From contig CM097888.1 of assembly GCA_044892525.1 (NCBI GenBank), forward strand, positions 36,704,001 to 36,768,000: a DNA stretch of 64,000 nucleotides. Direction: 5' to 3'. A program made the translations under genes and the position numbers. Of this stretch, positions 3,682 to 49,489 are shown piece after piece; positions within the stretch are counted from its first letter, which is position 1, and each line of letters opens with the position of its first letter. Source of the DNA: Schmidtea polychroa. Its lineage: Eukaryota. A model generated the notes under the pieces. That model made no database searches, was not told where the DNA came from, and was given only the letters and a program-made list of their open reading frames with translations.

Positions 3682-3686
3682 CTGGA

Positions 3687-9875: not shown

Positions 9876-9886
9876 CTCCATACTTG

Positions 9887-10645: not shown

Positions 10646-10699
10646 CTTGCCAATAACAATTCTGAGGTTATCACCAAAAATGTCAAAATAGGAATGTAA

Positions 10700-21889: not shown

Positions 21890-22259
21890 CTTATAACTTA
21901 TCGTATAAAATATTGCTTATGTAGAAATTTTTATAATATTTGTGATGTAGTCCATCATAATTATCTTTTGTTTTAAATGAGTATTAATCATATAAAAGGC
22001 ACTCGAAAAACACAAATTTTTGAAAAATGAAAAGGTTTGGAAATATGGCCAATTATCAACGATTCCTGTGACTTCAGTGGAGTTCGGAGGAATTTTTCAT
22101 CAGCCGGAAACTTTTACAATAAACTGAGATCTGATCTGAATGATGAAAAATTAAATCCATTGTGCTCTCTACATTTTCCTCTAGAAATCATTAAAAAATA
22201 AATATGTTTAATAAAATACAATTACTTTTGAACATGCAGAAATAACAGAAAAATATGAT

Positions 22260-25200
22260 ATCTTACCAAAAACCAAGAAAATATAATCAAGCATCTTTCT
22301 GATGGAAAGATTTTCATTTTCAAAATCAAATCTCGTTTTTCAGTTCCATAATATGGCTTAGAGAAAGCCATTGCAAATATAGCTTGAAATTCGTTTTCTA
22401 ACAAATTGAGGTTTCTATTTTTTGTAATTTTATACAAATATCTCAAAATGTAACAACGAAATCCGCCTTCGAATCCAAATTTCTCTACGAAATTTAATGA
22501 ATCTACAATTACAAAAATATTTTATAAAACGATAAAATTTTGGAATTTACTCTCATTTCTTAAATTTGACCATATTTTTTCAAATATATCAATTCCGTAT
22601 ACAACCTCTTTTTCTCGCTCCAACTCCGAACCTGGCTTACCTATAATACGGTCTGATTTAATTTTTGATCTTTCTACGTTTATGACTTTTTCATCTGATG
22701 AATTTCGCAGTTTTCTTTCAATGACACTTTTAAGACTGAATTAAAATTTAATAATAATTAAGAAAACAATGATGTACGCTAGGGTTATGATTTTTAAGCA
22801 TTTTGTTTCCGAATTATTTCTCCTTGGCTTTCTACCAATAAACTTGTTTTTCGAATGAAAAACTTTGAAAAGTGTTCGTGCACCCATCAATTTTAAAATT
22901 TAAGTTTTTGTTACAGGTCAAATAAACTTCAATCAAAATAACAAACTATTAAGAACAAGTAAGCTTCATTGTAGAAATTATTAAATTTCAAAAGCTATAT
23001 TATAAACTCCCAAGAAGAAAAGTTCATTATAATGTTGGGGTTCAACAAGAAAGGTACAAAAATGAGGTGAAAATCAATAAAAACATCAAATTCAAAATAA
23101 AAATTTAAAGTACAAAATATTAATTAAAAAAATCAAAAAATTAAAAATGAATATTTTCCGGGGCAAGCTGATATGGGCGGATGCCGAATAATGAGACGAG
23201 TTCAACTATAATAAAATAAAATCATTGGGGGGGGGGTCCCTGGAAGTAAAATAAATTACAAAACAAAAAATTAATTAACTAATGGAGAATCCAAGCTAAT
23301 GGGAAACCCGAGACAATAGAAAACCCGAGCGATGTGAAATGCAAATAAATCAGCCGACTATAATTAAATTGAGGTAAGCCGTCAAAGGAGACGGGCAAAT
23401 TCCTCAAAGCAATTAGAGCGACAAGAGGAAGCTCGAGGGGAAGTTGGATCCAGACTAATTTGACAGAGTAAAATCAATTACAAGATGGGTATAAAAGTGA
23501 CCGGCAAGTAAACAGAATTGCCAGTTGGTCGAAGAAAAGGAAACGAGAAATTTAGCGAGAGTATCAAAGAAAACTTTGAAGTTTGTGTCAATTGAATAAT
23601 TTAAATCGAGCGTACCAGAAAGGGACATCTCCTGCTGGAAGATTTATCTCTACGTAAGATTTGCAGTTGTATTGAAAAGTGCACACCAAAAAAGTGTTGT
23701 ATCAAGTGTGCTTGAATTAATAAAAAGTGTAACCAAAGCGTAACTGTATTAGTCTCGAATAATGATTTTTGTGATGGGTTGTTTATTTAATTTCAAAAAG
23801 AACACAAAGGAGTCAGACAGTGATACCGACTTGCACAAAATACCCAACAATAATATTTAAGATAATTTTTGACAAAACACAAATTTTTTTTTAATAATTT
23901 ACACAACAATATTTTTTGAAGTTTTAAAATATATTTTATTCATCCCAAAGTGGCTTTTGTTCTAAATCGAATTTAGATTATTGATTTTTAAGTGCTCTTT
24001 TTTATTTTCTGACTATAGTGTATGTACGTTTAGTTACAGTGTGCACTTTGCAATATAAAAATATTCTAATTATAGAACCAAGATGTTTACATGTATTACT
24101 GTTGAGAATTTTTTAGACGAAGATTGAAGATTAGCACATCAGAGTAATTATTTCTTGATGTATTATTGATTTAGAAGTTCATAATTGTGCAAAATATGTG
24201 AGAAAATATATTTTAATGCAATACGATCAAATCTTTGTTGATTCGTGATTATCGATCTTTAATTTTTGGTAATTTACAAATTATCTACTTGATTTAAAAG
24301 TTCATAATTGTGCAATCAAGTGCAAAAAAATGTGAGAAAATATTTTACTGCAAAATGATCAAATCTTTGTTAATTCATGTTGGGTACTTGATTATCGATC
24401 TCTAATTTTTGGTAATTTCAAAATTATCTACTTAACATATCTTAACTAACAGAATGCAGGTACCACGTTATTTGAGAGTTGTCCGTATATAAAATCATGA
24501 TGTTTACCTTTCGTCTACAATAAAAGGGTAAACCCTTGAACGAATCTCACTCAATAACTGAGATATGGATGGGCTGGATTCTGTTGGTTTTTCAAAAATA
24601 GTAGTATTATCGAAATTTCCAAAATGTGCCGCATATATTTCATCAGAAAGTTCAATGTTGGATAATTTCCTTTGAAAAAAACTTGTTAGCGAATCAAAAT
24701 CTACATTTGGGTCAAATATTATTAAATTTTTTCCAGAACTTTCATAATAATGTTTCAAAGTATAAAAATCAAAAGAAAATTCAGCCTCGTCTATAAATCC
24801 GGAATTTTGTTGCTGAATTCGGAATATAATTACATAAGAATACAATATTAAAACAAAAAATTTTACCAAAAATGTTTTCATTCCATAAAGATTATAAAGG
24901 TTTCCTCGATTAACTTGTTTTGATCTAATATAGTTTACAACATCAATTAATTGAGGCCATTTCCCTTTTGAACTTTTTATACGAAGAGATTTCATTAATT
25001 CTGTATAATAATCATTTGTATTGCAGTTGCCTTGTAAAATACTCAATATAACCATCTGCTCCTGTGACAACTAGACATATATTTATATCACATTTAGGCA
25101 AAACTTATAATTCTGTTTATTTTTATTATTAGAATTTTAACATTTTTCGTTTTTCTTCATTTTTATACAACTGTGAGTCAATAAATTTCGATTTAATACA

Positions 25201-28200
25201 AATTCATTAATAGAGATATTCCTTGATGTTTTTGAGTTTAAGGACATCAGAAGTCTACTTAAAATTCAATTGATTGTTTTTTAAAAACTTTATTAATAAA
25301 ATTTTTCATTCTCATTAAAAATATAAAAATATTACTAAATAATTTTATCAGGTTTATTAAATTTCGACAAAACCGCAAAATTTACAAATTTTATATAAAA
25401 CGGACAATGAGAACTATTTTCAATGGNNNNNNNNNNNNNNNNNNNNNNNNNNNNNNNNNNNNNNNNNNNNNNNNNNNNNNNNNNNNNNNNNNNNNNNNNN
25501 NNNNNNNNNNNNNNNNNNNNNNNNNNNNNNNNNNNNNNNNNNNNNNNNNNNNNNNNNNNNNNNNNNNNNNNNNNNNNNNNNNNTTTAAGCCTTTTGCTGC
25601 AAATAATGTATTTAATGAAAGAATTTTCGACTATACGAGGACTATCGTATAGTCGAAAATTCTTTCATTAAATACATTATTTGCAGCAAAAGGCTTAAAT
25701 TGTCATTTTATTGTTTTAAATAATAAATGCTGCTANNNNNNNNNNNNNNNNNNNNNNNNNNNNNNNNNNNNNNNNNNNNNNNNNNNNNNNNNNNNNNNNN
25801 NNNNNNNNNNNNNNNNNNNNNNNNNNNNNNNNNNNNNNNNNNNNNNNNNNNNNNNNNNNNNNNNNNNNNNNNNNNNNNNNNNNNNNNNNNNNNNNNNNNN
25901 NNNNNNNNNNNNNNNNNNNNNNAGATGAAAATTGAAAAAAGTTCTTATAATAATAATAATACTCCCTCTGTCCTATAATACTGGGTAGTTTTCGTTTCGT
26001 GTCCGCGGATTATTGCGAATATAAGGCTCTACCTCAATATTATTTTCTTATGAGTTGAATTAATCATACGACTTTCTAAAAACATCATTTACCAAAAATA
26101 TAACCGTATCTCCTTTTTTTATTTCATCATTATTTCATAAAAGGTCAAAATTACAAAAGTCGTTGTCCCATATTACTGGAAAGTTTTCACAAAAAGCTTG
26201 AAATACTCTATAATTTGTCAAGAATTAAAGAAAATAACGATAATTCTAAACTTATTTGTTCACATTTAACAATGTTTTATGATTACTGGACATTCCCTAT
26301 CATTTTGACATTTCATTTTCGTGATTTTATTTTGTAAACACCATTTCAGTTTTTCGTCATAAAAGTTTAATTTTTTCAAATTTTTATCCATAAATATGTA
26401 ACGAAAGAAGCGTGAACTTTCCAATGAACAAATGAGGCTAATATTTGAGGATTTTTTAAGTGAAAGTGACAACGGAATTCTTAAGAGGGATGCATACAAT
26501 TCCATTGCAAATAAATACCATGTGAGTATTCAAATTGTAGCGAAAATCTGGAAATGAAGTAAAGAAATCAGTCCATCGAATAAGGGTTCAAAAACACTGG
26601 GTGGAGTTGATCCAAAAAAGAAGAATTTTGAATTAAATGGCAATTTTAAAAGACAATTTGTATAGAATAATTTGTACATAGAATAATTTTATTGAATAAT
26701 AATAATTTTTGTGTCTTTTTAATTAACTCTAAAATTTATGAAATTTGCATGAATCTAAAACAACGGTTATCCTTTTCTATCAAACCAAAGTATTTTTCAT
26801 TTTCATAACTCAATAATGTCAAAACAAGGCACTCAAAAAATAAAAATTAAAAAGCAAAAACTTGAAGAAAGTGAATCGATGTGGCAAAAACTTGTAAAAC
26901 GGCTGAGAAAAGATACACCAGAAGTCGGAGAAGGGTCTTCTAATAAAAAAACTGCAACACCTCTTGAAATTTTACAGGGTCTGCATGATTTTGGATTAAT
27001 TAAATCTTATCCAAACATCAATATTCCTTACATTCCCAGTATCAATGGCTTTGTATGAGAGAAGTTTTAGCAAGTTAAAATTAATTAATATTTTTTTAAG
27101 ATCTACTATAGGACAAGATAGATTATCCAATTTTGCAATAATACCTATCGAGTATAACATCGTAAAGGATATTAATTATGACGATATAATTAATGACTTT
27201 GCTCAAATGAACGCCAGAAGAGTGCGAATAAATGAAAATTAAATAATATTATAATATAAATTATATTATAATATCATATCTATTTGAACTATAATTACTT
27301 TTTCCTTAATAATATTTTGAAAATCTCAAACTTCCGCGCTACAGTGAGATAAAACAAAAAAGTAAAAATTCGCTTTTAAATCAATATTTGCACTTTTTGA
27401 TCAATACTTGAATTTCTATTTTGAAAAATTTTCACTTAAAAATCAATAAATACACTTCAATAAAAATTTTAAAAATCAATAATCACGACAATCAATAATC
27501 GTAAAAATCAATAATCGCGACTTGACCTTGAAAAAAATTGAGGAGGCCAGGGCCTCTGTTGCTAACTAGTGCGCGGTAACTTTTTTTATATAAATATATA
27601 AATATAAATAATTTTAAGTACTTACTCCTAAACTTCTCATCACTTCCTGTTGTGTTACAATCTCACAACAAAAACTTTCTGGTTTTTGGAAATAGTTGTC
27701 AAACATCTCCTTATTATATTCTACAAGACTACTACCCAATATAACGGTACAATCTTTGAATACAAAAAAGTCGGTATTATTTGTTAAAATGGCGAAAGAT
27801 TTTCTTCGATGAAATTCTGAAGCGATAAATTCATTTGATCCTCCTTGTAACAACTTAACAACTTCGGCTCCAGATTTCTGAAAGTAACAGTAGATATTAC
27901 TTTGAAAACGTAACACGAAAATAAATTAAAACCGCCAACTGTCTTAATATTTCAAAATGAAATTATTTTGGTATTAAATATTAATCATATATCGAATAAA
28001 GAATAGAAATTTCATTTTGGATTGATTAAAAATATTTCATTTAGAATTCTATGATTTCATTTTTATGAATAAAATTTTACTTGTATAAAAATTAAAAACA
28101 TGAATGCTATGTAAATAATAATATAATTTTTGAAAAATATTTAGAATAAAATATAATTTTTTTAATTATAAGCTCGATTTAAAGTCGTTTGAGGTTATTT

Positions 28201-28749
28201 ACCTACTAACTAAACAATGGAAAAAGTAGATTTCATAAATTACTTTCAGTTCCTTAACAAACGTCATTTTATTGTAAAACGGAGAATAATTATCCAAATC
28301 GGTAATAGGTTCTCGATCGCGACAGCTTTTAAAGATGGAATCAACAAATTTTGAATAACCATAACTCTGATCATACCATGTCGTTAATCTGTGGGCATTA
28401 ACCTTTTTATCAATACCCTGTTTTAGAAATGGAATAAATAAAATTATCTGTCTAAAATTAATACCTTTACTCCATCGACAACCCACACCAATTTAATGCC
28501 CATTTCCGCAAACATTTCGTTAAAATCACAATAGGCTTTGGTGAAAATATCATATTCAAAGCAAAATGTAGCCAAATATTTGTTGTCGTAGTCTTTTATT
28601 ATTTTGATTAAAATAAATTTATCAAGCCATCTCCGAAAATTGCTGAAATCAACTAAAATTTCCATGTCTTTTACCTCATGAGCTTTTTGAATTAAATCGA
28701 ATTTCTTGGCTATCGTAGAAATATAGGAATAAAGTCTTGGTATACCCAT
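22260..28749 (-). CDS. multi-exon FAM120/asteroid-family PIN (XPG-like) domain gene; 3' end uncertain
   Basis: Exon readings MGIPRL..ILVDFSNF..IKLVWVVDGV (28749-28462), FVDSIF (28420-28255), EFIASEF..AILTNNTDFFVF (27886-27620), 25070-24505 with an internal GT-AG intron, and LLENEFQAIFAMAF..PSERCLIIFSWF (22740-22260). Confidence 0.7.
23033..23849 (+). mobile_element. solo LTR, same family as 9887-10645 (817 bp), intronic
   Basis: TGTTGGGG...CCCAACA; 4-bp TSD ATAA; colinear homology to the first copy. Confidence 0.9.
25962..26620 (+). mobile_element. Tc1/mariner remnant of plant Stowaway/DD39D type (5' TIR plus transposase N-terminus)
   Basis: TA|CTCCCTCTGTCCTATAATA terminus; M*RKKRELSNEQMRLIF..NGILKR..IANKYHVSIQIVAKIWK from 26396. 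Confidence 0.6.
26816..27560 (+). pseudogene. internally deleted hAT (ZMYM1-like) transposase
   Basis: Short basic N-terminus joined to YPNINI..ERSFSKLKLI..LRSTIGQDRLSNFAII.IE..IINDFA..ARR dimerisation domain; possible right end ggccagggcctctg. Confidence 0.75.
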
Positions 28750-30107
28750 TTTTAAAATTTTAAAATGTATTTTATCTAAGCTGAGATTTTAATTAATCAT
28801 TTTAAACAAATTTTCAAAGCGATTTAATTTATTATTGGAATAAATATAAATAAAACTTTTACTATAAAATTTAAATTTTAAATTAATTGCTTAAATTGCA
28901 TAATCAAAATTCATGATTTAATAATTCACTTAAAACTCTAATACTATAAATCCCTTGGCTTCCAGAAGAAAGAACTCTTATTTGATTTTTTTATTTATCG
29001 TTTTCTTTAATAAAACTTATTTCTAAACAGGATCGACTTCCCTTTTTAATTAATTTCTTAAAATAGTTTTTAGATAACGAATTCAAACAAAGACGAAGAG
29101 GTTAGCAAATTTATTTACACAACTATGCAAGCAATTTCAATGAAGCAATCCATAGGAAATGTTTTATCTTCATTTTTCCTGTGCTGTATTGGTACTCATC
29201 TCTAAATCCATGAATCGCTTCCACTCCAACTTTCCTGGCCTGGGCTTACATGGCCGTTTATCATTTGATAGGATTATTAGATTTCTTGAGCTCACCGCCA
29301 CAATTGTTTAAAATAGCTTGTTCTCGGTGTGGTCACCCAATCATCTACTGGACAAGTTCGGTTATGTGCTGTTGAATCACCTTTTTAAAGTTACAAAAAA
29401 TTATCAACTAGCTTAAGTCCAATTTTGGACAAAAAATGTAATTTCTTAACTTCATTTCCGGTTCTAGGATATATGGCTCAAATTTTCACTGCTATAAATA
29501 CACTGTGCTCCACAGTATATTTAGATCACACTATAGTGATGGGGTTATATTTAGTCTATGGGCTTTATAAGCTCACTATTGTCTTAGGCTTTTTTGTACA
29601 GGGAATTATGGTATGACGCTTTTTTAAACTATATTTTGGCTGTTGATTTAAACACTGATTTTTGGTCATAGTATTTTCTATGGGCTTTTTTGTATTTTGG
29701 TCTCAGTTTTTACTATAGACTTGATAGATTCGCAAAAGTCAGAGGTGTTTTATTTCAATATAAATATTACATTTTGGAGGGGCAGTGTTTTGGTTTCAGG
29801 CCTTTAATACAGGGAATAATGGTCACAGGTTTTTTTACTTGATTTTGGCTCATGATTAAAAATCTGGGATTTTTGGTCATTGTATTTTATATGGAATTTA
29901 TAGACTCACTATAGTCACGGCACTTAATGATTTCAGCATTTTCTAGAGGTAAATATGGTACCAGGATTTTTATGTCAAATAAGATTTTATGCACTGATTA
30001 TAAAATTACAACCTTTTAAACCACGTCCTTGTACAGATTCTTAATGTAGAAAAAATAATAAGAAACGAACTTAGAATTGGATTAAATTATAAACAATGTG
30101 AGTAATA

Positions 30108-30255
30108 ATGAAATGTGAACGTGGTTTACCATATTTTAATGTCTTGATCAAGACTTCGAATACAAAAAGAATGCTGATTTTACAAGCTCTTTCATCATTT
30201 GTTATTGATGATTTACTTGAAGTTATTGAGAGTGTTGTTCTTGATAATGTGCATA
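30108..30255 (+). pseudogene. second Polinton remnant, 5' half of the basic QxGG protein gene
   Basis: MKCERGLPYFNVLIK..FVIDDLLEVI..NVH is homologous to 3364-3681; TIR-like repeats upstream at about 29400-30000. Confidence 0.8.
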
Positions 30256-30466
30256 CAGTAGTGTGAAAAATTTAGGCCACAAACATGTCCTAAAAATCTT
30301 ATTTGCCCTAAATTTCGAAAAAAATTATTTCGTTTAAAATTACATAAAATCATTATTTAAAATTATTATTATTTTTGTATATGGTTTCTTTACTTTAAAA
30401 GGTGTAATTCATTAGCATGAATTGAGGTAAGACAATTCACAGAATAAATTATAGTTACATATTTAA

Positions 30467-30651
30467 CCGTTTGCGGACGGTAGGCCAGCACTGCTGGCCA
30501 CGAATTTTGTTCCAGACGTTCTACAATGTATAATGGCCAGCTGTGCTGGCCAAACTTTAAAAAAATCATACTTGGAAATCGGGCATTCGTATACTAAAAA
30601 ATTATGCTAAAATATATACTACTTATTAAAATTAATTCCGTCCTCAAACGG
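30467..30651. mobile_element. piggyBac-type MITE (185 bp)
   Basis: TTAA TSD both sides; 14-bp TIR CCGTTTG(C/A)GGACGG; two internal GGCCAGC-n3-GCTGGCC palindromes. Confidence 0.9.
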
Positions 30652-30949
30652 TTAAAAAATTATTAATTGATTATAAAAATGAATCATGAACATTTTGCTT
30701 GATATCCACTGTAAAAATCTGTTGTTTTCTTGTCAATTGCATACAGCACTGCGAGGTTTCTAATATACGGTTGTGATCGAAAAAATATAATTAAATTCAG
30801 TTAAAAGATGCTTTAAACCGAATTCCTATACTAAAATAATTATTTTATAAGGAAAAAATAAATTTAGTTTTTTATGATAAAATTCTTTAAACATATTACA
30901 AAGATATAGCTATAAAAAATTACAAATAGCCTTTAATCGATAATGTAAG

Positions 30950-32310
30950 TCACCGCGGATCTTCAGAATATACTTTCATAGTTCTTATTTTTAAACTCAA
31001 TTTACGACTTTCAATTAACATCAATTTCTTCAATATGCAACAATTTATCCAGTTTTCTAAATGATAATTTACAGATTCAATCCTAGATGCTTCCGATATA
31101 TCGCAAAGGATTTCATCGAGACAAAATAAGGATTCATCATAAATAGGATCATCTTTCACCACAAAGTCTGGAGCAATTAAAGTATCAAACAAAACTCATT
31201 TTCTTCTTTTTCTAAATCTGTATTCCGAAGCTTTCCTTTCATTTTTTCAAACTTTTCCCAACAATTCAAACACGTCCCAGGAAGAACCTTATTGATAGAC
31301 TCTCTTACCCAGTAGCATATTTCTAGCAATGTCAAGGAACTAAAACAAGATTTTATATCCGCATTATTATCAATTATCATATTTGTAACAAAGTTATTGA
31401 CATATTCAGAATACTTAGACTTGATATCGTTAATTATACCTAGATCTAGAGGCTGTAAGATCGATGTTGTATTGGGTGGCAAAAATAACAGTTTCACGTT
31501 TGAAAATACACCAACCTCGTGGCCTTTAAAATTATCGAATAATATTAGAATTTTTCTATCCTGTATGATCCTTTCGTCATTTAAATCGTTTATATATTTC
31601 AAAAAATATCTTTGGTAAGCCATGAAGATGTGTTGTTAGCATATTTTAGGTTGTAATTATCTGGTTTCTCGTTTTTAAAAGCCCTGGGGTTTTGCTTTTT
31701 CCTATGATTAATGGTGTAATTTCATTGCCGTATTTATTAAAACATAATAAAAGCGTAATTTTTGTTTTATCGGTTTTGATACTTTTTCTGTCATCTTCAT
31801 CCCACAGAATGTAACTTCTTCTACCAAAATTCTTGATATATAGACCAGTTTCATCTAAATTGTAAATATCTTTTTCATCATTACATTTCTTTATAACTTC
31901 AAACTCATCAAAAAGTCAAGAATCTTGTCTGTCATAGCAGATTTTGCCTCTCCACAAAGGGATTTAAATGCCACATTGTATCGCTTTTTAAAACCTCTTA
32001 TAAAGTATGGTGTGATGTTCACACGGCAAGATAGTGTTATTGATTTATATTTATTTGCCAATGATATCAAGTTCCCCATTAAAACATTGCCACCTGCATT
32101 TCGAATCTGCCTGATACCATCAAGCATGTATTGATCAATGTTCAATAACTTGATTTCTGCTGCTTTACATAAATTAAAAGTATCCAATGTTGGATCATCA
32201 CTTTCCAGGTTTAAAAGCTCCTCCGGAGATTTGATTGCTGTTCTAAAAACCTTTTGTGATACATTAAATTCTTTTTCGATATCACACAAAGCCTTTTTAT
32301 CCTTTTATAT
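30950..32310 (-). pseudogene. pogo/Tigger transposase (CENP-B HTH plus DDE_1), frameshifted
   Basis: GFKKRYN, IYNLDETGL, LFDNFKGH, LPPNTTSILQPLDLGII; N-terminal KKRNTYTKRIKRKIAKAY lies at 37437-37500 beyond the inserted element. Confidence 0.9.
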
Positions 32311-32715
32311 TGGTGGGTTACTGGTGGTCGAATGATTAAGTGCTGTTACCAGCGTAACCCAACATGCAACATTGTTTTTCCGCTTGGTACCCGTTGAGTA
32401 ATCAACGTTGGTACTGTACCAAGGGTTGAGTACTCGCAAAAAGTGAGCGCATCAAAGCACTATAATTGTCGAGTACTCCATGGGTTCATGGACTACCGAT
32501 AGAAGGTGTGTGTCCGATTTCTCAGGTCCCTTTATCAAAATTGTTTTCCCAACCTTACACACAAGCTCTCGTTTCTCAGGCAATCATAAGTATCTCAGAC
32601 ATTATTTAACGCTACAAAATACGTATTATTGTAACAACAAGCAAAAAAAAATATTATTTTAGTACTGCAAGGTATATAAAACACACTACAAAATTGCACA
32701 ACACGGAACAAAAGT

Positions 32716-33195
32716 TCAACTCGGCCGATGGGTGGGGCCGGTTAGTCCCAACGTAGACGTTTGCGATGAGCCCGCTTGCCTTTCATACTCGCCCAGTCTG
32801 GCCTTCTTAAATTTTTCACGGATGTTTCGCCCAAGCCGTTTTCTTTTGGGCTTATTTTCAGCGGCTGGGGGATATATGGTTGCGAGTTCAACGGCCAGTG
32901 GCCGTATTTGTCTTGCTGCGGATTCTTGCACAAATCGCTCGTTCCGCTCGGTCTCGAGCGCCCGCACCTGCAATTTCAGGGCGCGAATCTCCATTTGGTC
33001 CTGAGCGGCCTGTGTCTGCAGCTGGAGGATCTGGGCTGTTTTCTTCTTCATCGCTTCGGGACTAAACCAGGTCCCCTCGAACTCCCGACATTTTCCTTTC
33101 AATTTGTCCACCCGGACTCGGAGTTCGTCAGCACGTTGTTGGGCCTGCTCCCGATCCTTCCGGAGATTTTCCATTAACTTGTACACTAAACACAA
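32716..33195 (-). CDS. GC-rich coiled-coil protein with basic NLS-like cluster (159 aa; may be a second exon)
   Basis: Heptad-like LRKDREQAQQRADELRVRVDKL and MEIRALKLQVRALE; KPKRKRLGRNIREKFKK; TTTAG acceptor-like site near the ORF start. Confidence 0.65.
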   Translation of the reverse strand: MCLVYKLMENLRKDREQAQQRADELRVRVDKLKGKCREFEGTWFSPEAMKKKTAQILQLQTQAAQDQMEIRALKLQVRALETERNERFVQESAARQIRPLAVELATIYPPAAENKPKRKRLGRNIREKFKKARLGEYERQAGSSQTSTLGLTGPTHRPS

Positions 33196-33407
33196 CAGTT
33201 GTCAGTTTCCTTCATATCGAATAAAATGAAAATGTAAATTATTAATTAACGTTAGCAATTCCCGGTTACGACCTTATTGCTCTTATTCAATTTACTATAT
33301 GAATTCCAAGACTCAAAAGAAAAATTTCTTTTATTCAAACAATACACATTAGAAGATAGCGGTGCTATAGATATAATGACTAAAATAAGTTATTTATAGT
33401 CTAATAA

Positions 33408-33602
33408 TCACGCTTGGCGTTTGCGGGGCCTCCCTCTTTTTCTCGGGGGTACCGTGGCCTCCTCCAATTCTTCCAGGGGCACTCCCTCCTTTTCCGCCCT
33501 GATTTGCAGCTCTATCTTCTTAAGCCGGATCTGAGCGTCTTCCACATCCCAGGCCGCTTGATCTCGGGCCTCCTGCAACCGGTTATTCTCCGGCTCCTCC
33601 AT
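33408..33602 (-). CDS. 64-aa acidic/coiled-coil peptide with C-terminal AT-hook
   Basis: ATG-initiated, ends PPRKRGRPRKRQA*; GC-rich relative to host. Confidence 0.65.
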   Translation of the reverse strand: MEEPENNRLQEARDQAAWDVEDAQIRLKKIELQIRAEKEGVPLEELEEATVPPRKRGRPRKRQA

Positions 33603-33756
33603 CTACTTCGGGGCCCGTCCGGATTACTCGATCTGCGCAATCCAGGTCCCGTCCCTGACCCCACCGATGTATATGGTACCAGATGTACCGGGTCCGGAGT
33701 CGGGTGATCGTCTGCTGGTCAGTACCCTCGTCACTACTAGAGCTGGATTGAGACAT
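33583..33756 (-). CDS. 57-aa ORF overlapping the AT-hook ORF
   Basis: ATG at 33756, MSQSSSSSDEG..RYIWYHIHRWG; TGACGTC plus TATTTATA about 45-60 nt upstream. Confidence 0.45.
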   Translation of the reverse strand: MSQSSSSSDEGTDQQTITRLRTRYIWYHIHRWGQGRDLDCADRVIRTGPEVDGGAGE

Positions 33757-34774
33757 GTCTGTAATATAAATATTAAGACCCATGCATAACCACCTTGACT
33801 TATAAATAGACGTCACAACAAAACATACAGAAGTTTCTTGTTTAAAATCAATAATACTTAACTACTAAATTTATTATAATTAATATAAATACTTCTAACA
33901 TAACCAAATTTTATTTAATTTATTGATATACTTTTTAATTAGGTAAATTAAAGAAAAATTTATTAAAGTTAAGTGTTAACGTTAGAAAATTCATACCAGA
34001 ACCGAAAATCTCCAAAAAAAAATGGTTTTGTTTTAAATTATTATTTTAATCATTCGGCATTTATTTACCACTAGTTGGTAATTTGAATTTTATAAGTTGA
34101 AATTTTAGAATTTTTTAGGTAATTTTAGGTAAATATGAATATTTCCACTAAATGCGGTTACGCCAGGCGAGGGGTACTAGTGACGAGCTCAGTCTCTTGC
34201 TCACTTACTCTTCCCCTGGTTGTATTCGTTATAAGTGGTAAAATCATCGTTTATTCATTTGAGGTAATCTATTTCTTGATCTTATATACCTAATTTAAGG
34301 ACAATTTGATGATTATTTTTCCCAGCTGGAGTTATCGAGGTTCAGCTTCTGGAACTCGCCCTACGATTCGTGGTCCGTAATCAGGATTTTGTATTCAAAA
34401 CAAATTGTGCATGGTAATTTATTGCTCGAATAAAATTGTAAGAATTCTTTTGTTTCTTTAATTTAATAACAATTAGATATTTGATTACCCATTTGGTGTG
34501 AGCTTATGTAGTGGATCATACCCTCTCATCCATATCCCTAGATGACTTGAAGATTAGTGACCCTCTACCGGGGGGGGGGGGTGTTGCTAAAAATAGCTTT
34601 CCAGAATTCTGATCCCTCCGATTGGCTCAAAAGGGTTACTTCTAATTTTAAAATTTTTGGGAAATTCCTAAATCGATATTGGATTGATTTTTGGAATTAA
34701 TAATCACTACTAATAATAATAATCTATAATTGATATAGTATTTATAGGTTTAATAGCATACTCTACAATGATTA

Positions 34775-34775
34775 A

Positions 34776-34849
<74 letters not shown>

Positions 34850-35345
34850 GAATACCTGTAATTAATTTATATGCACTAAGGACAAAATTATTACTAACAA
34901 TTAAGTTATGTATAATCGAGGATTTAATGATAATGATAATAATAATGGTGATAATAATAATAATAATAGTAATGATAATGATAGCAATAATAATCATAAT
35001 AATAATAGTAATAATAATACTAATCATAGNNNNNNNNNNNNNNNNNNNNNNNNNNNNNNNNNNNNNNNNNNNNNNNNNNNNNNNNNNNNNNNNNNNNNNN
35101 NNNNNNNNNNNNNNNNNNNNNNNNNNNNNNNNNNNNNNNNNNNNNNNNNNNNNNNNNNNNNNNNNNNNNNNNNNNNNNNNNNNNNNNNNNNNNNNNNNNN
35201 NNNNNNNNNNNNNNNNNNNNNNNNNNNNNNNNNNNNNNNNNNNNNNNNNNNNNNNNNNNNNNNNNNNNNNNNNNNNNNNNNNNNNNNNNNNNNNNNNNNN
35301 NNNNATAATAACAATAATATTAGGGTTAATAATAATAATAATAGT
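34775..35345. repeat. (AT)n and degenerate (AAT)n microsatellites flanking an assembly gap
   Basis: (AT)n about 34775-34848; AAT-type repeats 34925-35029 and 35305-35345. Confidence 0.95.
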
Positions 35346-37790
35346 AGTATAATTTTATATGGTACAATTCGAAGTTTATATTTCCCATTTTAGAGGTTCC
35401 TATTCTATGATTTGGAAAGTTACTTTTTGGAATTTATAAATTTCCGTTTCTAATTTGGAATTTTTTTTATTTTCCAATTTACAAATTTATTCTTTGTAAT
35501 TTCTAATTATATATATTATAGTTTGTAATTTAATGATTTATGACTTTATATTTTATATTTTATAGTTTTATATTTTATAATTTATAATTTTATGTTTTAC
35601 AATTTAGGGGTTTAGATTTTATAATTTATAGTTATAATTTTCGTAGTTTATAATTTTATAGTTAATAATTCACGATTTTAGGTTTTATACTTTAGGATTT
35701 TATATTTCATGATTTATAATTTTATACTTTGCAATTGATGAATTTCTAATCAGCTTTACATGACTTTTTATGAGTTACTTTTGCGAGATCATCCCAGTTT
35801 TTCCAAAATGTTTTCAGGTTTGTTGGTAGCTATTCATAAACTATACTCCTGAGGTTCCACATTTATGTATAATTAGAAAAAAAAATTCCTGTACACAAAA
35901 TCTATAATTCCTAATCGGGATTTTCCACTAATGATTTACATCAATATAAATATCTCTAAGATCTTATAAATATTTCTAAAATTGTAACTAAGTATTTATA
36001 CATTTATGAATATTTCAAAGCGGGAATTGGATTTAAACTACCTACATTTACTTTGAATTAGCCTATCTAGATTAAGTTATACCTGTACGTATGCCGAATA
36101 TCTCTCTTGGTTCTATTACTTTATCAAAGATTCTTATTACAAAATCTAGTTCGGCATATGTCTAAGTATAATTGAAATTACCATTATGGATCAACTGGCT
36201 ACATTAATGTGAGTGCAAAATTGTGTAATTTTAGGTACGAGTTCTACTCAAATTAGAACCTTAGTGTAGAGTTATTGTTCATGATTTTAAATGTTGAATT
36301 TAAATATGTGGTGCATAGAAGGTCGGGAAGAATATTGCTTCCATGGCCCCACTGTGACCACTTCCACAAACCTTAGTGTTGAGTCAACCATTTACGGTCG
36401 ACCTTACATAAATACAAAGAGTCAGGCGGAGGGTTTCCTCGACCTAACTCCATGGCAGGACCATGAAGTAGTTCGACCTCCGGCTGACCCGAACAAAAAA
36501 GGGGTTTTATAGATAATAATAATGCATGTATGCATGAGAAATAGAATTTAAGAATCATATGCAGGACCGATCAGAGACGTACTCGGACGCCGCTGATCCG
36601 TCGGGAATTACTAAAGCATAAAATCTTAATAATATTTTTAATGAACAAAAGGTTGATATTAACATGATTACATAACATAAAATTACATCAAATCAAAAGG
36701 CTTACTAATAATTTTCCAGAAAATTCTTCAGCAAAATATTGGCATAAAAGTGATGATTGTGACTGAAACGTGTCAGTATATATACCTATTTAGTACACGT
36801 GTATGTATTGATGCATTAAAACAAACTCGAATTCTTTTTATTCCAGAATTTTCTATTTTGCGATTTTACTATTTTTAATGGCAATTTTTGTGCCATAATT
36901 TTTGTTTTTATTTTTAAATTTTTATTTTTTAATTATTTTTCGTTAATTTGACATCCATGATGGATTTGGAACGGTTCCAGAACATTCCATGTTAATTTTA
37001 ATTTTATTTTTATTTTAACTGATGTTTTATGAATTTCTTTTTAAGATTTTTTATTTTTAATACTAATTTATTTATTTTCTCTAACTTTTATTGTTCTAAC
37101 TGGCTTTTGTGATGGTCATCGCCATTTTTATGGAATGTTCTGGGTTTTCTGGAAATCTTTACTGTTTTTACTGTTTTTAAGTTATTCGAGTCTGTTTTTT
37201 GTAACTCTGTGTTTATTTGGTTATTTTTGAGTTAGATTTTTGCATCACTTCTTGCTTTTGTATAATTTTATTTAATTTCTTTGTTTATGTTTTTGTTGCT
37301 TTCTCCTTTAGTTAATATTGTTTATTTGGTGTAGTTTTTAATATTTAACTATACTTTTTGCTTTTTGCATGCTGTGTACTTACACATTTCAGTCATAATT
37401 AGAAGTTTGGGTCTAGAAATCAGTTCTAGCCCAACAATATGCTTTGGCAATTTTTCTTTTTATTCTTTTGGTGTAAGTGTTTCTTTTTTTCTTATTTAAG
37501 TCTATAATAAAGATTGCCTTAATTTTTATTAAAAATTGATTTTTATAGGTAAATTTTAAGTAAAATAATGCCTTAAATTTTTAACATAACCTAAAATTTT
37601 ATTATAAATCGCAGAATTGCTCGAAAATATTGCTTTTAAAAAATAAAAAAGAAACGATATATAAATTAATTTTATTATTTTTGACATCATACAAAATTTT
37701 AATGGTGAAATTTCTTTCTTACAAGATAAATGCCTTAAAAAATTAACATTTACAGTCTATTTTTGTACCCTAAATATCGCATACTACGTA

Positions 37791-37880
37791 TTACTAAAGC
37801 TAAAAGAATAGAATTTGAAAGACATAAAAGATAACTTATCGTAGCCAACACTAAAAATCGACTTTTGATGAGAAATTTTG
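37791..37880 (+). pseudogene. second Polinton remnant, 3' half of the basic QxGG protein gene
   Basis: ttactaaagctaaaagaatagaatttgaaagacataaaaga matches 3511-3550 (TKAKR..ERHKR). Confidence 0.8.
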
Positions 37881-40742: not shown

Positions 40743-42080
40743 TTAAATCAACGAATAAACAGTGCATATCAAATTGTCAATTAAAACAGAAATATTTTGA
40801 TTGGTTTCGCCAAATCTTTCACGTAGTTCTTCCAAATGAACTTCTAGAATATTACGATAATATTCTTCTGTGTCTGTATCCTTGGCTGCACCCCTCCAAA
40901 TGACATCAACATAATAATGGCATAAGTTATCGAAGTAACCGCACACCAGGCTTAAGTCAAGCCCACCAAAATCGAATAAATCTGTCACATTATTTACATT
41001 TAAAATTTCTTTTGAATAGTCCCTCTGAAATCCTATTTCTATTTGAAAAAAATCGCGCAAATCGCACTGAATATCTAGGTCAAGTCTTTGATACTTCAAG
41101 TCATCAAACACTGACAATATCAGTCCTAAAATTTTTTTCATTGATAATAAAACTTTTGTAACTATTTTGGAAAGAATTTCTGAATTTTTCTCCTGTGAAA
41201 TTTCAAAAGATTCCATTTTACTGATTTTTGATTGGTCGGTTTCAGATTTTTCTTCAACTTTTATTGATTTATTGTTTGCGTCAGAAATTACTGCCATAAT
41301 TTCCATTCGATAATTGGATAATAATGGGAACAAATATTCGACGTGCTTAAATCCATTGTAAAAAAGAGAACTTATTAGGCTTATTGTCATTTCTATTGAT
41401 TCAATGTAGAAAATATATAAATTATTCATATTCTCTGATTTTTTTGATAGGTCAGATAAATCTTGTTTCAGCTCTTCCCAGGTAATTGATTGGTTAGCAT
41501 AATTTTTCATGCTGAGTTCCGCTAATTTGATAATGGAGTTCATCGTGCGACAGCAATTTTCTTTTTCTTCAACTTGATATCGAATCTGGTCCACTACATA
41601 ATTCCCAATATCATCATAGACATAATCTCGACTAAATTCATTAACTATCAAAAATCTTTTAAATGATTTAGAAACTCCCTTAATCTTTTCTGAAAAATCT
41701 TTAAATTCTAATTCTGATATTTCTCTATTCATTGGTTGAAAAGTTGACGAAATATTTTTCAAATGGATTGAATTGGCTCGGAAAACTTTAACAAGCTCTT
41801 TCATCTCACCTAAATATGATAGAAGGTAATTTACACAATTTTCATCGCTTTCTAGAGTTGACATGAGATAGAACTCTACTCCCGTTATCAAATTTTCTGC
41901 ATTTTCTGTCAAATATTTCAGAGATGTTACTGATTTTCGGTCAATTGGACAGGTATGATTATTGAGTATCATTTCCTTTGTACAATTGCGACAAAACGAA
42001 TGTCCGCAACATTCAAATATTATCCTCGACTCATCTGTTATTGGATCATAGCATATTAAACATTCTTCATCAATTCCCAT
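40743..42080 (-). CDS. intronless RING (C3HC4) protein with helical/coiled-coil body (445 aa)
   Basis: CLIC..CCGHSFCRNC..CPID at the N-terminus; uninterrupted ORF. Confidence 0.85.
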   Translation of the reverse strand: MGIDEECLICYDPITDESRIIFECCGHSFCRNCTKEMILNNHTCPIDRKSVTSLKYLTENAENLITGVEFYLMSTLESDENCVNYLLSYLGEMKELVKVFRANSIHLKNISSTFQPMNREISELEFKDFSEKIKGVSKSFKRFLIVNEFSRDYVYDDIGNYVVDQIRYQVEEKENCCRTMNSIIKLAELSMKNYANQSITWEELKQDLSDLSKKSENMNNLYIFYIESIEMTISLISSLFYNGFKHVEYLFPLLSNYRMEIMAVISDANNKSIKVEEKSETDQSKISKMESFEISQEKNSEILSKIVTKVLLSMKKILGLILSVFDDLKYQRLDLDIQCDLRDFFQIEIGFQRDYSKEILNVNNVTDLFDFGGLDLSLVCGYFDNLCHYYVDVIWRGAAKDTDTEEYYRNILEVHLEELRERFGETNQNISVLIDNLICTVYSLI

Positions 42081-42718
42081 TGGTATTTATTTCTAGATTT
42101 AATAAAATTAGCTAATTTAGCTAATTAAATAAATGAATAATAATTATTTTCAAATATTTATCATTAATTTTATTGGTTAAATTTATTCCAATCTTAATGA
42201 AAATTTTGAAATTTTTCAAGAAATTTGAATTATTAATATCAATAAGTTTCATATAGAAATCCCAGATATATTTTATATAATTACATTTATTTTTATTTTA
42301 AATATAGATTTTTAGAATTTTTTAAAAAGTATATTTTATAAATATTTTTATTGTTTTAATGGAAATACACTTTATACACTTTAAAATTTAAAATTGGATA
42401 TTTATTTTTTATGTTAACATCAAAAAAATAAGTATAATGTCATTAAAAGTTATACTATATTTACGGTAAATATATTTTTTTTGGAAAAATAAAGAACATC
42501 GAAGAAAAAAAAAGTACCTTATAAAATCCATAAATTTATAACATTTTTTTCAAAAATAGCAGTGAAATAAAGGACTTAAATAATCGATGTGTGGTTACCG
42601 TAACTATATTATAAAATATTAATGGTTTTTTTGTAAATATCTCATTTCCAAATAATGATTTCTATTATTTCCATTTGACAAACTTCAGTGTTTTAATCAA
42701 AAAGTAAGTACTTACATG

Positions 42719-44239
42719 CAGCGCCGGCTCTAGCATTAGTAGCGCCCCGATGCGAAACTCATTTTAGACGCCCATTTATTTTATTGGTTTTTTGGAATTA
42801 ACGTAATTTAATTGGCAATATTAAATTTGTAATAAAAACATTAAAAAATTAATAATAATTCTTTTCCAAGTGAAATACAGGTTTTATTTTGTTTATATAT
42901 TTTTTTATTTTATTGAAACAATATTATAATATACAAAAATTACATAACATACATATATTTTGTATAAAAATTGACAAAACTATTATTCTAGATATTTACT
43001 TTTCTAGCTTTTAAACTGGCAAATTCATCAATTAAATTATGTATATCTAATTTGTCGCATATATCACTTTCAATCGATATCATTGCTAAACCAACTAATC
43101 TTTCTTGTGAAATTGTTGATCTTAAATAATTTTTAATTAGTTTAAGCTTCGAAAAAGATCGTTCTCCGCTAGCAACTGAACCTGGTAAAGTTAAAGATAT
43201 TTTAATAGCAATTACAAAATTGGGAAAAATGGAATCCAGTAGATTTTTATATATATATTGCAAGATGTTTAGTGGGTTTTCAAAGTCTTTCAAAAATTCC
43301 TTTGCTATTTTTATTTCATTAAATAATTCTGTTGCAGATATATCTTTTTTCTCGCCATCGGTTAGCATTATTTCTAAATCAGAACAATGTTTTTTTAATG
43401 TATTATCATCCATTTTGTTAATTTCTTTTATATTATGTATAAATTCAAATTTTTCACTATATTTTGTGAAAAGATTAAACCTTTCTTTTAAAGAATTGAT
43501 AGTAATATCTAAAATTGGCAGAAAAAATGATATTTTATATTTAAGTATCGGATCAACTGGCGTTTCGTCTACAGATTCATAACCAAAAATTTTTTTCTTT
43601 CTTCTTCGTAACGTATTATCTTTGAATTTCGCAGGTATTTCTAAATCAGCTGCTATATTTTCTGCCGTTTGAAGAATAAGACTAAAATTTTCATCGGATC
43701 TATATTCTTCAATAAATTTAATAAGACTATTTAACGCAACTGAAGAAACATTTAAGTTTTGATTTGGATTTTGGAGCAGTTTACTAACAACGTTAACTTT
43801 ACTTAAAACATCGTACCAAATAACCACTGAACATATAAATTCATACTCTTTTATTTTGAAAGCCACAGCCTTAGCTTCATGCTTTGTATTATTATCTATT
43901 TCTAGGTTTTCATAAATGTCAACTAAAGCATCTAAAATTTCAGCTATTTCAAACCTAAGTGGTTATATATAGCAGGCCGTTTCAAAATAAATTTATGCAT
44001 GTATAATTTATTTTGTTTTGCGAAATAATTAAACAATTCTTAAACACTTCGAAAACTAGTAGGCCAGTAGTTTTTCAAGGAAATTTTATTTAAAAATAAA
44101 AATTCTTATTAAAATAAAATTTGTTAATGGTTTTTTTGTTAAATATTAAAAAGAAACTAAAATTCTAAATTGTTTAGCGCCCTTTCCGAGAGGCGCCCCG
44201 ATGCTTTGCATCCACCGCTTCCAACTAAAGCCGGCCCTG
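42719..44239 (-). mobile_element. non-autonomous hAT (ZMYM1-like, 1521 bp) retaining the transposase C-terminus
   Basis: TIR CAG(C/G)GCCGGCT(C/T)TAG; perfect 8-bp TSD CTTACATG; ORF 42988-43866 with SVASGERSFSKLKLIKNYLRSTISQERL. Confidence 0.93.
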
Positions 44240-46339: not shown

Positions 46340-47049
46340 TGCAACGGCCAAACACTCTATTCGAGTCCGTTGTCTTCCTCTAATTTCTAGTTGTTATAAG
46401 TGGTTTGAATATCTACATTACCACCAGGTAATTAAAAATTTCTTAATATTATTTGCACATCTATTTTAGTCTACGAAAACAACGAATCACCGTAGTTTGA
46501 TTTCAATCTGCCTTGATACCCCTCGATTGGGAACCTATTGAAGCCTTTCCTACCTCGCTGGATGGATGCAGTGTGATATGATTAATTAAGATAAACGGAA
46601 GTCGTGTCTACTCGTGTTTTGCTTGATACGATGTGTCGTTAATTTTTGATGGTCATTCCCTGTCTGATCTTTTAGTTATCAGGTCGTCAACTAATAATGG
46701 TATTTGGTAGTTGAAAGGGTAGAATTCACGTTTAATTTAAAACTGAATATTGCTAATAAACATTTAAATTGTATTTATCAGATTACATAAATTTTTATAT
46801 AAATATCTAAATTAATAAATTAAAGTAAGTTTAAAATATAAAAATAAATTAAAATATATTAAATATTAAAATAAATTAAACCAGCATTGAAATCAGCATC
46901 AAAATTAAAATAATAAAAAAGCCTCGAACAGATTGTTTGAATATTACAAAAAAGCGCAGTTTTGTGAATAAAATTAATTTAGTAATTTTATTTGGTTATT
47001 TTATTAATTATGGATATTGAACATGAATTCGACGTTGTTGCGGCTAACA
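46340..47049 (+). mobile_element. putative LTR bracketed by a PPT and a PBS
   Basis: AAAGGGAGGTGAAA then TG at 46340; ...AACA then TGGCGACCACGG at 47050 directly before gag. Confidence 0.45.
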
Positions 47050-49151
47050 TGGCGACCACGGCAACAAACCTATTGATTAACAGGTTGCTACCAGAAAGAT
47101 TCCACGGAGATGATGACCTGGAAGAATTCATCAAAGAATGCCAAAATATTTTTAATATTACAAAAACATCTGTCAAGATGCAGATGATTCTAGTGACCAC
47201 ACTGTTGAAAATAAACATCAGGCGGATAAAACCATACCACAAGAATATAGACCCCCAAAACGACTCACCGAAAGACAAAACACAAACCCAAACACAAACA
47301 AAAAAACAACCAATTCACAAAAACATCACATTCAACCACAAAAATTCAATCAAAATTTTCGACAAAGACACAATACTAGCTCCACTATACAAAAAACGTT
47401 ACAGCGAATGCTTTAAATAAAAACACAAACAAACACACGCACAAACAGCGTTAATTGTACAGTTTTTATTTTTCTTGTAAATACAAAACAAAAGGTAAAT
47501 TTTTAATTTTATTGAGGTTGTAAATACAAAGAAACAGAAACAAAATACATAAAAACATATAAAACACACAAAAAAAAAGGTTATTGAATGTAATTTGTTT
47601 CACGTTACTTTTTATTGACTCATGTTAACCTCCGGTTTTAAAGGGGGAAGTTATGTAATGTACAGCTATTTTTGTTAGTATTTTAGTATACACAATTAGG
47701 AATTGTGTATACTAAAATATAAAATACCACCATCTGGGAAATCCAGATTTTTAAAAAAACTATATAGCGATAATTTACTATAGTAAATTATCGCTTATAG
47801 TAAATTAGAAATTAAAAAAATTGAAAATTAAAAAGAAATCAATATCGTGTGGTTTTTGAGACTACGTTTTATGAACTACAATTTTTTGAACGACAATTGA
47901 ACAACGATTTACGAAATACAATTTTGGAACTACAATATTCAACTACAATATTCTGCTACAAACTTCAAGAAATATCAGAAGGTTCTATTTATATTTTTTG
48001 GTTGTAATAAAGTTTTAAAGATTCAATATTTAGTTATTGTTTTGTGTTAGATTTATAACTCTGTAATATTTGCAACTACTACATTTTTAAACATAACACG
48101 CACCCCGATTGTCCCGCTACAAGTTTTAACGGTGACTCTTTCGGGCTCTTCAGAATCTTCATCAAATTAACATAACATTAACTTAACAATAATTTGTCAA
48201 CAATAATATAACCACATAAATAAGATAGCTATAAATCATAACAGATAATAATTCAGTCATAACTGAATTATTAAACCATTATACGATGAATATGAAAAAT
48301 CAGAAGGAAAAACATTTGAAGAGAAGCTCAGATCAGCATTTTCGAGGCCAAAATCATTATTCGAAGACTTAAAGGAAGCTCTAAATTATGAACAAGGATC
48401 AGATTCAGCATACCGCTTAATCGAAAAAGTAGAGAAATTAACCAAAAGATTACTGCGACATGAGTGGAACGAAGAAGAAATTAAAAAGTGCCTGCTCATG
48501 AATGGGGCTCGAGAGAAAAAAGTTAAAAAGGAAATAGAAATGCAAGAACTATAGACGTCAGAAGAAATTAAAAGCACAATTAGAAAAGTTGAGAAAGTGA
48601 ATAAAGCTATAAACCATGTTAACTCCATCCGCCCTATAACATATATGAAACCTGTCAAAAGCTACAGAGATGCCGTTCAAAGACCCGCACAGACAAATAC
48701 GATGCTAATTTCAAAACCATTGGAAGCGACTAAGAACGTTGTATGCTGGACATGCCAACAACCAGGTCATTTAAGCCGAGAATGTACTATGAAGAGGAGG
48801 ATTCAGTGTCTTGGATGTGGATTATATGGACACGTACACCGAGAATGTCCAAACATTCAGTGTAGGAGATGTCATCTACAAGGTCACAAAGAAACTGAAT
48901 GCTATACAAACCTAGAAAGATTTAAGCCGAAAATGAATCATTACGGAAGAAATAATGCAGCACACCGAAATAAAGGAGGCCGATTTCAACAGAACAATCA
49001 GTATAACAGAAGAGAGGTAGCAGCAATTGGAAATCAAGATGCAAACTATCAACTGAATTATTCAAGTGAAGCCGAAGAGAAATACGACGAAATGCAATAC
49101 CCAAACGAGGAAGCTCCATCACAGGAGGCGATGATAGGAACCATTTATTAG
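47049..49151 (+). pseudogene. Gypsy gag with three CCHC knuckles, interrupted by a ~1 kb insert
   Basis: LPERFHGDDDLEEFIKEC (47080-47200), resumes LYDEY near 48272; CWTCQQPGHLSREC, CLGCGLYGHVHREC, CRRCHLQGHKETEC. Confidence 0.88.
47640..48100 (+). mobile_element. PPT plus probable LTR of another element inserted in gag
   Basis: AAAGGGGGAAG followed by GTTATGT...ACATAACA inverted termini; no TSD identified. Confidence 0.35.
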
Positions 49152-49489
49152 GTAATTTTGATTTTGATGAAAATGCTGGTTATAATAATGTAAATAATTT
49201 TTATAATGTAAATAATTTGAATAGTGTAGATAATTTTAATTGTTTTAGTAAAGATTTATGTAATAATATGGATGATAAAACTAATTTTAATTTTTATAAA
49301 AGTAGCAGTATAGATCATAGAAATGAAAACAGCAAAATAATGTGTAGCGATGAAAGAACAGGAGAAAAAGTATATAGTTTCCTAAAAATGTCATTTGATA
49401 TGAATGAAGATAAGATTAGGTGGATTAATAAAATTTCAGATAGTATAAAGAACAAAGTGGAACAAAATATATTTACGAAAGACGAATGA

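Follow-up and report, generated by a model that had tools for sequence, protein, structure and literature searches.

Background

The Burro elements, giant Ty3/Gypsy retrotransposons of planarians, have interiors of up to 25 kb and total lengths above 30 kb, and contain accessory open reading frames (ORFs) and an env-like region; the parts of this source that deal with the accessory ORFs describe them as upstream ORFs or polyprotein domains and mention none inside the long terminal repeat (LTR) (PMC6431247). The size of Burro and its A/T content of more than 70% are noted elsewhere (PMC11410931), and BURRO1 is described as abundant, active and repressed by SMEDWI-2 (PMC8532177). Here we analyze a stretch of 64,000 nucleotides (nt) from contig CM097888.1 of Schmidtea polychroa (assembly GCA_044892525.1), hereinafter the window, which contains at positions 32311-37436 a 5.1-kb insertion with two short ORFs on the minus strand. 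This insertion is probably a solo LTR derived from a giant Ty3/Gypsy element that may be Burro-like, and would carry accessory genes in the way the LTR of mouse mammary tumor virus (MMTV) carries sag. Membership in Ty3/Gypsy is likely.

Among plant elements, the LTRs of Ogre are 1.9-6.5 kb long (PMC6431247) and those of rice Retrosat2 exceed 3.2 kb, with 429 solo LTRs compared to 162 complete elements (PMC3485330). The extra ORFs of Grande, RIRE2 and Retand are located in the internal region and have been proposed to function like retroviral accessory proteins (PMC7264820). In MMTV, sag lies within the LTR's U3 region under its own promoter (PMC9412291). The Ginger1 and Ginger2 elements are 2.6-7 kb long and have terminal inverted repeats (TIRs) of 40-270 bp, TG...CA-type ends and a 4-bp target site duplication (TSD), the targets being CCGG or CCGT for Ginger1 and RTATAY for Ginger2 (PMC2836005).

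An insertion nested in a pogo/Tigger transposon

The insertion and the layers that enclose it are listed below (here and throughout, positions are those of the window).
32311..37436, minus strand: the complete insertion, 5,126 bp with the gap of 275 N counted; read as an LTR with minus-strand sense
32307..32310, no strand: left TSD copy, ATAT; target 6-mer tATATg, pattern YRYRYR
37437..37440, no strand: right TSD copy, ATAT
30256..32306, minus strand: left part of the host pogo/Tigger element, with a TIR, the DDE_1 domain and a CENP-B-type DNA-binding region
37441..37788, minus strand: right part of the host pogo/Tigger element, with the likely first transposase helix (by eye) and the second TIR
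30053..30253, plus strand: first half of a split small gene, an intact copy of which lies at about 3360-3680
37791..37875, plus strand: second half of the same gene as 30053..30253

The element starts with TGGTGGG at 32311 and ends with CCCAACA at 37436, and ATAT is present on both flanks. The initial annotation, made from the sequence alone, had recognized in these TG...CA ends a resemblance to the ends of two 0.8-kb solo LTRs, with a 4-bp TSD. Both observations are confirmed: the duplication is exactly ATAT (the fifth base pair does not match), and the two solo LTRs, about 79% alike, prove genuine and are each flanked by a 4-bp TSD of their own (9887-10645 and 23033-23849; in the second, the plus strand carries a TATA box at 23490 followed by AATAAA at 23719). 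The tATATg target, a single site, fits YRYRYR, the target consensus for Drosophila gypsy (PMC9427105).

The insertion is taken to be real because the nested context is in register, and not on account of the end motif. The element interrupts the pogo/Tigger transposase at ATAT. The left flank is Tigger/CENP-B-like on the minus strand (atlas match of 0.94, 182/256 features), followed by DDE_1 (E-value 1.4e-16), and the right flank up to the TSD reads KKRNTYTKRIKRKIAKAY, recognized by eye as the first transposase helix that the left flank lacks. A CAGT-type pogo TIR begins at 30256 after TA and its partner ends at 37788 before TA; the score of this partner is reached by only 3 of the 125,266 24-mers of the window, and this one sits at the predicted junction. 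The small gene split by pogo resumes across 30254|37789, with 75% and 78% matches to the intact copy, and excision of the element in silico yields a 2,403-bp pogo with both TIRs and the TA duplication. Pfam detects neither the Tigger/CENP-B-like left piece nor the right piece, a word-based protein search with the N-terminal part of pogo gives no match, pogo DDE loci were searched for and not found, and a PDB sequence search with the pogo piece gave an uninformative result. Compared with other copies, the pogo copy (30256-37788) is missing one letter at each of 31195, 31600 and 31909, and hence probably either the family is intact elsewhere or the assembly contains homopolymer errors. A miniature inverted-repeat transposable element of about 190 bp is located inside pogo at 30463-30655, with TTAA on both sides and short inverted ends.

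Two outer nested elements are in register across the N gap, and therefore a mis-join of unrelated sequence, like chance ends, is ruled out. The nested context is compatible with a full-length giant LTR element that collapsed in the assembly, each half of the sequence then deriving from one of its LTRs and the interior being concealed by the gap. Such a collapse would leave the TSD and the nesting unchanged; the gap does lie within the element, in an AAT-type repeat, and the single letters missing from the pogo of the window, when other copies are compared, suggest that the sequence is imperfect. However, the five other gaps of the window are similar in size (134-236 N), the same repeat type is found on both sides of the gap, and the sequence would still be an LTR. 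We consider a collapse quite improbable.

The ends themselves narrow the choice of known classes. As initially annotated, there is no direct-repeat pair: comparison of the first and last 1.5 kb of the element gives three matches of 11-22 nt with E-values of 0.28-0.97. Large retrotransposon derivatives (LARDs) and terminal-repeat retrotransposons in miniature (TRIMs) are defined by two direct terminal repeats, and membership in either class was rejected, no such repeats having been found in the element. The terminal inversion of about 9 bp noted before stands at 8/10 letters, followed by 11/20, 17/40 and 30/100 as longer ends are compared. Membership in Ginger1 or Ginger2 was rejected because a TIR of 40-270 bp is missing (17/40 and 30/100 letters inverted).

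LTR-like order of signals on the minus strand

The features of the minus strand are as follows, in the direction of reading.
36937..37436, minus strand: A-rich start with a terminal hairpin, putative U3 start
34281..34288, minus strand: TATA box, TATATAAG
34209..34260, minus strand: putative leader exon that ends in A, with the GTAAGT donor at 34208; start predicted from the spacing to the TATA box
33408..33756, minus strand: ORF1, with a Ser/acidic start, a helical middle and a C-terminal RKRGRPRKR AT-hook-like motif; frameshift near 33600
33186..33407, minus strand: AT-rich spacer or intron, with the proximal AATAAA at 33335-33330; the ORF2 acceptor AG ends at 33186
32716..33185, minus strand: ORF2 exon, about 155 amino acids (aa), with two long helices, a CRxFExTWFxP kink and a basic tail; start codon probably split, A|TG
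32531..32536, minus strand: putative distal polyadenylation (polyA) signal GATAAA, AATAAA in the consensus of relatives
32311..32575, minus strand: terminal block, which would comprise the end of R and U5; folds only on the minus strand and is the deepest part in 4 of 4 runs

On this strand, the TATA box at 34288 is followed by a leader of about 50 nt, the GTAAGT at 34208, the ORF1 acceptor (the AG ends at 33759, 2 nt ahead of the ORF1 ATG), the AATAAA at 33335, the ORF2 acceptor, after which TG is in frame with ORF2, and the GATAAA at 32536. As motifs, and with the distal signal read as the AATAAA of relatives, a putative succession of Pol II promoter, polyA signal and U5 can be read. The distal signal is GATAAA here, whereas 30 loose-end contigs of X5, one of the four runs considered below, give AATAAA as their consensus (agreement 0.55).

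Three features of the ends agree with minus-strand sense. The start of the element on the minus strand matches the starts of the two 0.8-kb LTRs in 10 and 11 of 14 letters, versus 7 and 8 of 14 on the plus strand, a difference of a few letters. The first 500 nt of the minus strand have an AT skew of +0.42, which none of the 556 intervals outside the element reach; at the starts of the 0.8-kb LTRs the skew is +0.38 and +0.39. The terminal 270 nt at the left end fold on the minus strand with a z-score of -2.48 (2 of 200 shuffles as good), compared with -0.99 on the plus strand (35 of 200). A hairpin had initially been described at each end. At the right end, the 70 nt do fold better than shuffles (z-scores -2.2 and -2.5); the left 70 nt do not (-0.8 and -1.3), and a left hairpin significant by itself was rejected, although the longer 270-nt segment folds as described above.

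In the simplest layout, U3 would begin at 37436 and be followed by the gene unit, by polyadenylation near 32510 and by about 200 nt of U5; the ORFs may belong either to U3, transcribed from an internal promoter, or to an R of unusual length. Under the preferred interpretation as a solo LTR, a full giant Ty3/Gypsy element would have integrated at the YRYRYR site in pogo, generating a 4-bp TSD, and would later have lost its interior through recombination between the two LTRs. The LTR, with its sense on the minus strand, would contain a complete transcription unit, in which a TATA promoter near 34288 produces the leader exon. Both ORFs are probably spliced from this one leader, to judge from the sequence signals: the first of the two alternative last exons would contain ORF1 and its own AATAAA at 33335, and the second ORF2, the polyA signal near 32535 and a start codon, A|TG, that is made by the splice.

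Two other candidate joints were rejected. The joint at 34254-34317 in run X7 is not accepted as a splice, intron-like letters being present, and splicing ORF1 in frame to ORF2 from the GT next to its own stop would be in the wrong phase (by eye). The depth of X7 relative to ORF1 is low over 33806-34174 compared with the other three runs and recovers at 34175-34297; such a dip is what the predicted intron and leader exon would produce, but it is not counted as evidence because contig depth cannot rank gene parts.

Two small minus-strand genes

Both ORF1 and ORF2 are GC-rich frames. The ORF2 protein is conserved: a search among 1.84 billion representatives identifies a single relative, P0001, with 43% identity and an E-value of 8e-20 (47% over 96 aa in the pairwise alignment), whose cluster consists of two unnamed members. 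The CRxFExTWFxP motif is common to ORF2 and P0001, and P0001 has Leu-Val at the point where a gene caller reading through the predicted ORF2 acceptor would place this pair. Other searches yield nothing of this kind. For ORF2, Pfam gives only Ribosomal_L30_N, below the cut-off (E-value 0.025), no atlas match reaches 0.9, and none of the 47 Foldseek matches in BFVD has an E-value of 0.001 or lower; word-based protein searches find nothing for ORF2 or for longer forms of P0001.

AlphaFold2 models ORF2 as two long helices with the kink at CRxFExTWFxP (mean predicted local distance difference test score, pLDDT, 78.7; predicted template modeling score 0.35), followed by the basic tail (net charge +8 in residues 105-135). 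A two-copy model of residues 1-105 scores 0.58 compared to 0.00 for the best control, at least 85% of the contacts agree between homodimer runs, and the pLDDT is at least 84. In benchmarks, 21 of 30 microbial pairs pass the mark used to call homodimers, as do 17 of 29 eukaryotic pairs (7 of 16 in animals); none of the single chains does (0 of 23 and 0 of 30, respectively). The model supports, and does not show, that the ORF2 product is a coiled-coil homodimer with a basic tail.

For ORF1, contigs of 4 of 4 runs diverge from the window near the 33600 frameshift (by eye), which is consistent with one continuous frame in relatives. A diverged 582-nt contig of X5 (contig 12) aligns to both ORFs, with 12 differences in 127 nt and 31 in 158 nt, and contains 297 unrelated letters in place of the 212-nt spacer; the boundaries, 33190 and 33403, adjoin the predicted ORF2 acceptor and the ORF1 stop. 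The ORFs are kept while the spacer turns over, a pattern that would be expected of selection on the coding parts.

The initial annotation had attributed to the element small nuclear-type proteins of its own. This holds for at least one small protein, which is conserved and shows features of the nuclear type, and the supported genes are those on the minus strand at 32716-33756; the plus-strand segments and the ORF at 36291 highlighted at that time are left without support. The products are probably nuclear, an AT-hook-like protein (ORF1) and a coiled-coil dimer with a basic tail (ORF2). Their most likely role would be to act on the AT-rich chromatin of the element itself as transactivators or anti-silencing factors, a possible but tentative assignment suggested by the motifs (AT-hook-like and basic), by the dimer model and by the analogy with retroviral accessory genes.

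A dispersed, highly repeated family

Part of the segment 32311-34770 is matched in 10 of 17 listed runs from five studies (best share 0.45). Contigs of four runs from four studies were aligned to 31100-34760 at 80% likeness, so that the evidence on copy number covers the left 2.45 kb of the element. Summed contig depth, which is not a copy number, steps up sharply at 32311 in 4 of 4 runs; in X5 it is about 600-1,100 over pogo, 394,000 at 32330-32452 and 11,000-30,000 over the ORFs. The terminal block is the deepest part, several-fold above the ORFs, in each of the four runs, all of which also contain many diverged contigs of the element. Four single contigs (X5, X7) join the terminal block to ORF2 or to the end of ORF1, with short sides of 20-45 letters. 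The element is thus a member of a dispersed, highly repeated family. No relatives of ORF2 were found at the DNA level in metagenome, viral or prokaryote genome contigs, and no element end patterns in metagenome or viral contigs.

The initial annotation had left two options, a giant gene-bearing solo LTR or a cargo element. The latter would be a non-autonomous unit that has no paired-LTR form, combines integrase-type ends with its own small genes and is moved in trans by a Gypsy-like or Ginger-like integrase, the end hairpins taking the place of TIRs. The depth profile can be read in this way, as if the terminal block were common to derivatives; furthermore, the hairpin at each end contains a copy of the terminal motif, the paired form is not seen in the run contigs listed or in metagenome and viral contigs, and non-autonomous copies of Ginger1 exist (PMC2836005). 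However, the inversion here is at chance level beyond about 10 letters compared with Ginger TIRs of 40-270 bp, and the target is neither CCGG/CCGT nor RTATAY. The polarity and the order of promoter, polyA signal and terminal block mirror those of the ordinary 0.8-kb LTRs. We also know of no route by which a unit of this type would be copied in the absence of paired repeats. A cargo element is therefore unlikely in our view, and the giant gene-bearing solo LTR is preferred to a Ginger-type cargo because of the LTR-like order on the minus strand and the lack of a TIR.

The right half of the element

The remaining features of the element are the following.
34189..34636, plus strand: exon-like segments with 62- and 63-nt GT-AG introns
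34778..35730, no strand: (AT)35, AAT-type repeats, the assembly gap at 35030-35304 and a 22-bp tandem tract
36291..36512, plus strand: 73-aa GC-rich ORF

The GC-rich ORFs and the 275-N gap are present as initially annotated, together with both kinds of simple repeat and the tandem tract. The plus-strand segments do have GT-AG introns of the lengths given, but once joined they contain no ATG frame longer than 23 aa. Likewise, the 36291-36512 frame exists but has no family match; a short GC-rich plus-strand stretch at 36565-36618, after an acceptor-like AG, could be its last exon (by eye). The longest stop-free stretch of the element is 161 aa, and thus the sequenced part contains no pol, in agreement with the earlier statement that it encodes no transposition enzyme. 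No integrase (rve) match was found among the scanned ORFs of this sequenced part, inside which the 275-N gap lies, and the only Rfam match in the element is the (AT)n run, below the gathering score.

The right half also bears on the length of the LTR. The true LTR could consist of the ends and the left gene block, with the right half inflated in this copy by later insertions or repeat expansion. This half is indeed mostly low-complexity and outside the range aligned to the runs, and no relative was found for its ORF at 36291. However, we noticed no inner TIR pair here in the list of repeats, in which the AT run predominates, and most bins retain the A-skew of the minus strand. We regard a shorter LTR as very improbable.

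Points that weigh against a gene-bearing solo LTR

Several observations weigh against the interpretation of the element as a giant gene-bearing solo LTR or limit the evidence for it. By itself, the end motif is at chance level: the window contains 463 comparable pairs (TG..CA ends 0.3-10 kb apart that are flanked by a 4-bp duplication and inverted in at least 7 of 9 letters), 10 of which have at least five G/C among the first nine letters. The orientation drawn from the comparison of ends depends on few letters, and a TATA-like box is present also on the plus strand at 32675. Neither a paired copy nor a primer-binding site (PBS), polypurine tract or gag-pol neighbor was seen in the run contigs or in metagenome, viral and prokaryote contigs; no loose end falls at 32311 among the best 24 of 835, and the right 2.7 kb of the element lie outside the aligned range. 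Long pieces of X7, which by our guess is an RNA run, are unspliced through the predicted introns. With regard to the proteins, the AT_hook match of ORF1, read with X at the break, has an E-value of 0.49, below the cut-off; among eukaryotic pairs that lack an older solved relative, 1 of 7 passed the homodimer mark, and ORF2 may pass it through generic coiled-coil likeness.

Other features of the window

Other mobile elements are present in the window. A decayed Polinton-like element at 347-7873 has inverted arms (about 347-1520 and 7146-7873) that enclose an rve piece and PolB_2 pieces, and contains a likely packaging ATPase at 2766-3176 (by eye). An element of about 5.9 kb at 9380-15246, with inverted arms of about 350-400 bp that are 89-94% alike, contains one of the 0.8-kb solo LTRs and a Ser-rich ORF of 389 aa (12038-13207) that has no Pfam match; its outer ends show no obvious TSD. 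Transposase ORFs of the hAT type are located at 20364-21779 and 42988-43962 (DUF659; Dimer_Tnp_hAT). Decayed Gypsy-like fragments with a zinc knuckle and a reverse transcriptase lie on the plus strand at 46986-50832, where a simple pattern search finds no adjoining LTR of the 0.8-kb type or PBS. Among the transposons lies an intronless ORF of 447 aa (40743-42086) whose one clear domain is an N-terminal RING finger, and 58145-59335 is a large exon of a host gene with cNMP-binding and RasGEF_N domains (RapGEF-like). Finally, a perfect palindrome with 55-bp arms 6 nt apart (25584-25699) sits between two N gaps and has a related copy at 2428-2511; it is possibly an assembly artefact.

Implications and comparison with known systems

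Solo LTRs are usually regarded as non-coding scars. If the proposed interpretation is correct, an invertebrate LTR of 5 kb with a spliced two-gene unit for nuclear proteins would amount to a regulatory layer of giant Gypsy elements similar to that of complex retroviruses, which survives in each solo LTR. The ORF1 and ORF2 products would be candidates for a role in the escape of giant elements from PIWI silencing, and LTR gigantism would become testable as gene capture versus repeat expansion. A more far-reaching version can be formulated, in which the promoter at 34260 is the only one and R, about 1.75 kb long, contains two accessory genes expressed by alternative last-exon splicing, one of them with a splice-assembled start. 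Every LTR, solo ones included, would then be a self-contained cassette whose two products, one an AT-hook protein and the other a DNA-binding dimer of the coiled-coil type, act in trans against host silencing, and the solo LTRs of this family would be dispersed regulator genes instead of inert scars; we hold this version to be doubtful. In the literature covered, no description was found of ORFs within giant LTRs of planarians or other invertebrates; Grohme 2018 and Repbase, which were not covered, may already show them.

Among the known systems, Ginger elements are similar in the TG...CA-type ends, the 4-bp TSD and a length range, 2.6-7 kb, that includes the present element, but differ in that the latter lacks a 40-270 bp TIR and, in its sequenced part, an integrase, and has another target (tATATg). 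Plant Gypsy elements with giant LTRs (Ogre, Retrosat2) share LTRs above 3 kb and abundant solo LTRs, and extra accessory-like ORFs are found in Grande, RIRE2 and Retand; however, these extra ORFs are internal, either upstream of gag or in the segment between pol and the 3' LTR, and not within the LTR. Burro/GYPSM1, compared here by description and not by sequence, belongs to a size class that leaves room for multi-kb LTRs and has accessory ORFs and tandem repeats, but no accessory ORFs are described inside its LTR, whereas here they are inside the putative LTR. MMTV, with an LTR of about 1.3 kb, is a vertebrate betaretrovirus with one ORF region, unlike the two short ORFs, the putative shared leader and the several-fold longer LTR described here, and sequence similarity between the two was neither found nor expected. 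It is nevertheless in MMTV, with sag/naf, that a protein-coding ORF and its own promoter are contained wholly inside the LTR, as proposed for the S. polychroa element, so that a solo LTR carries the gene.

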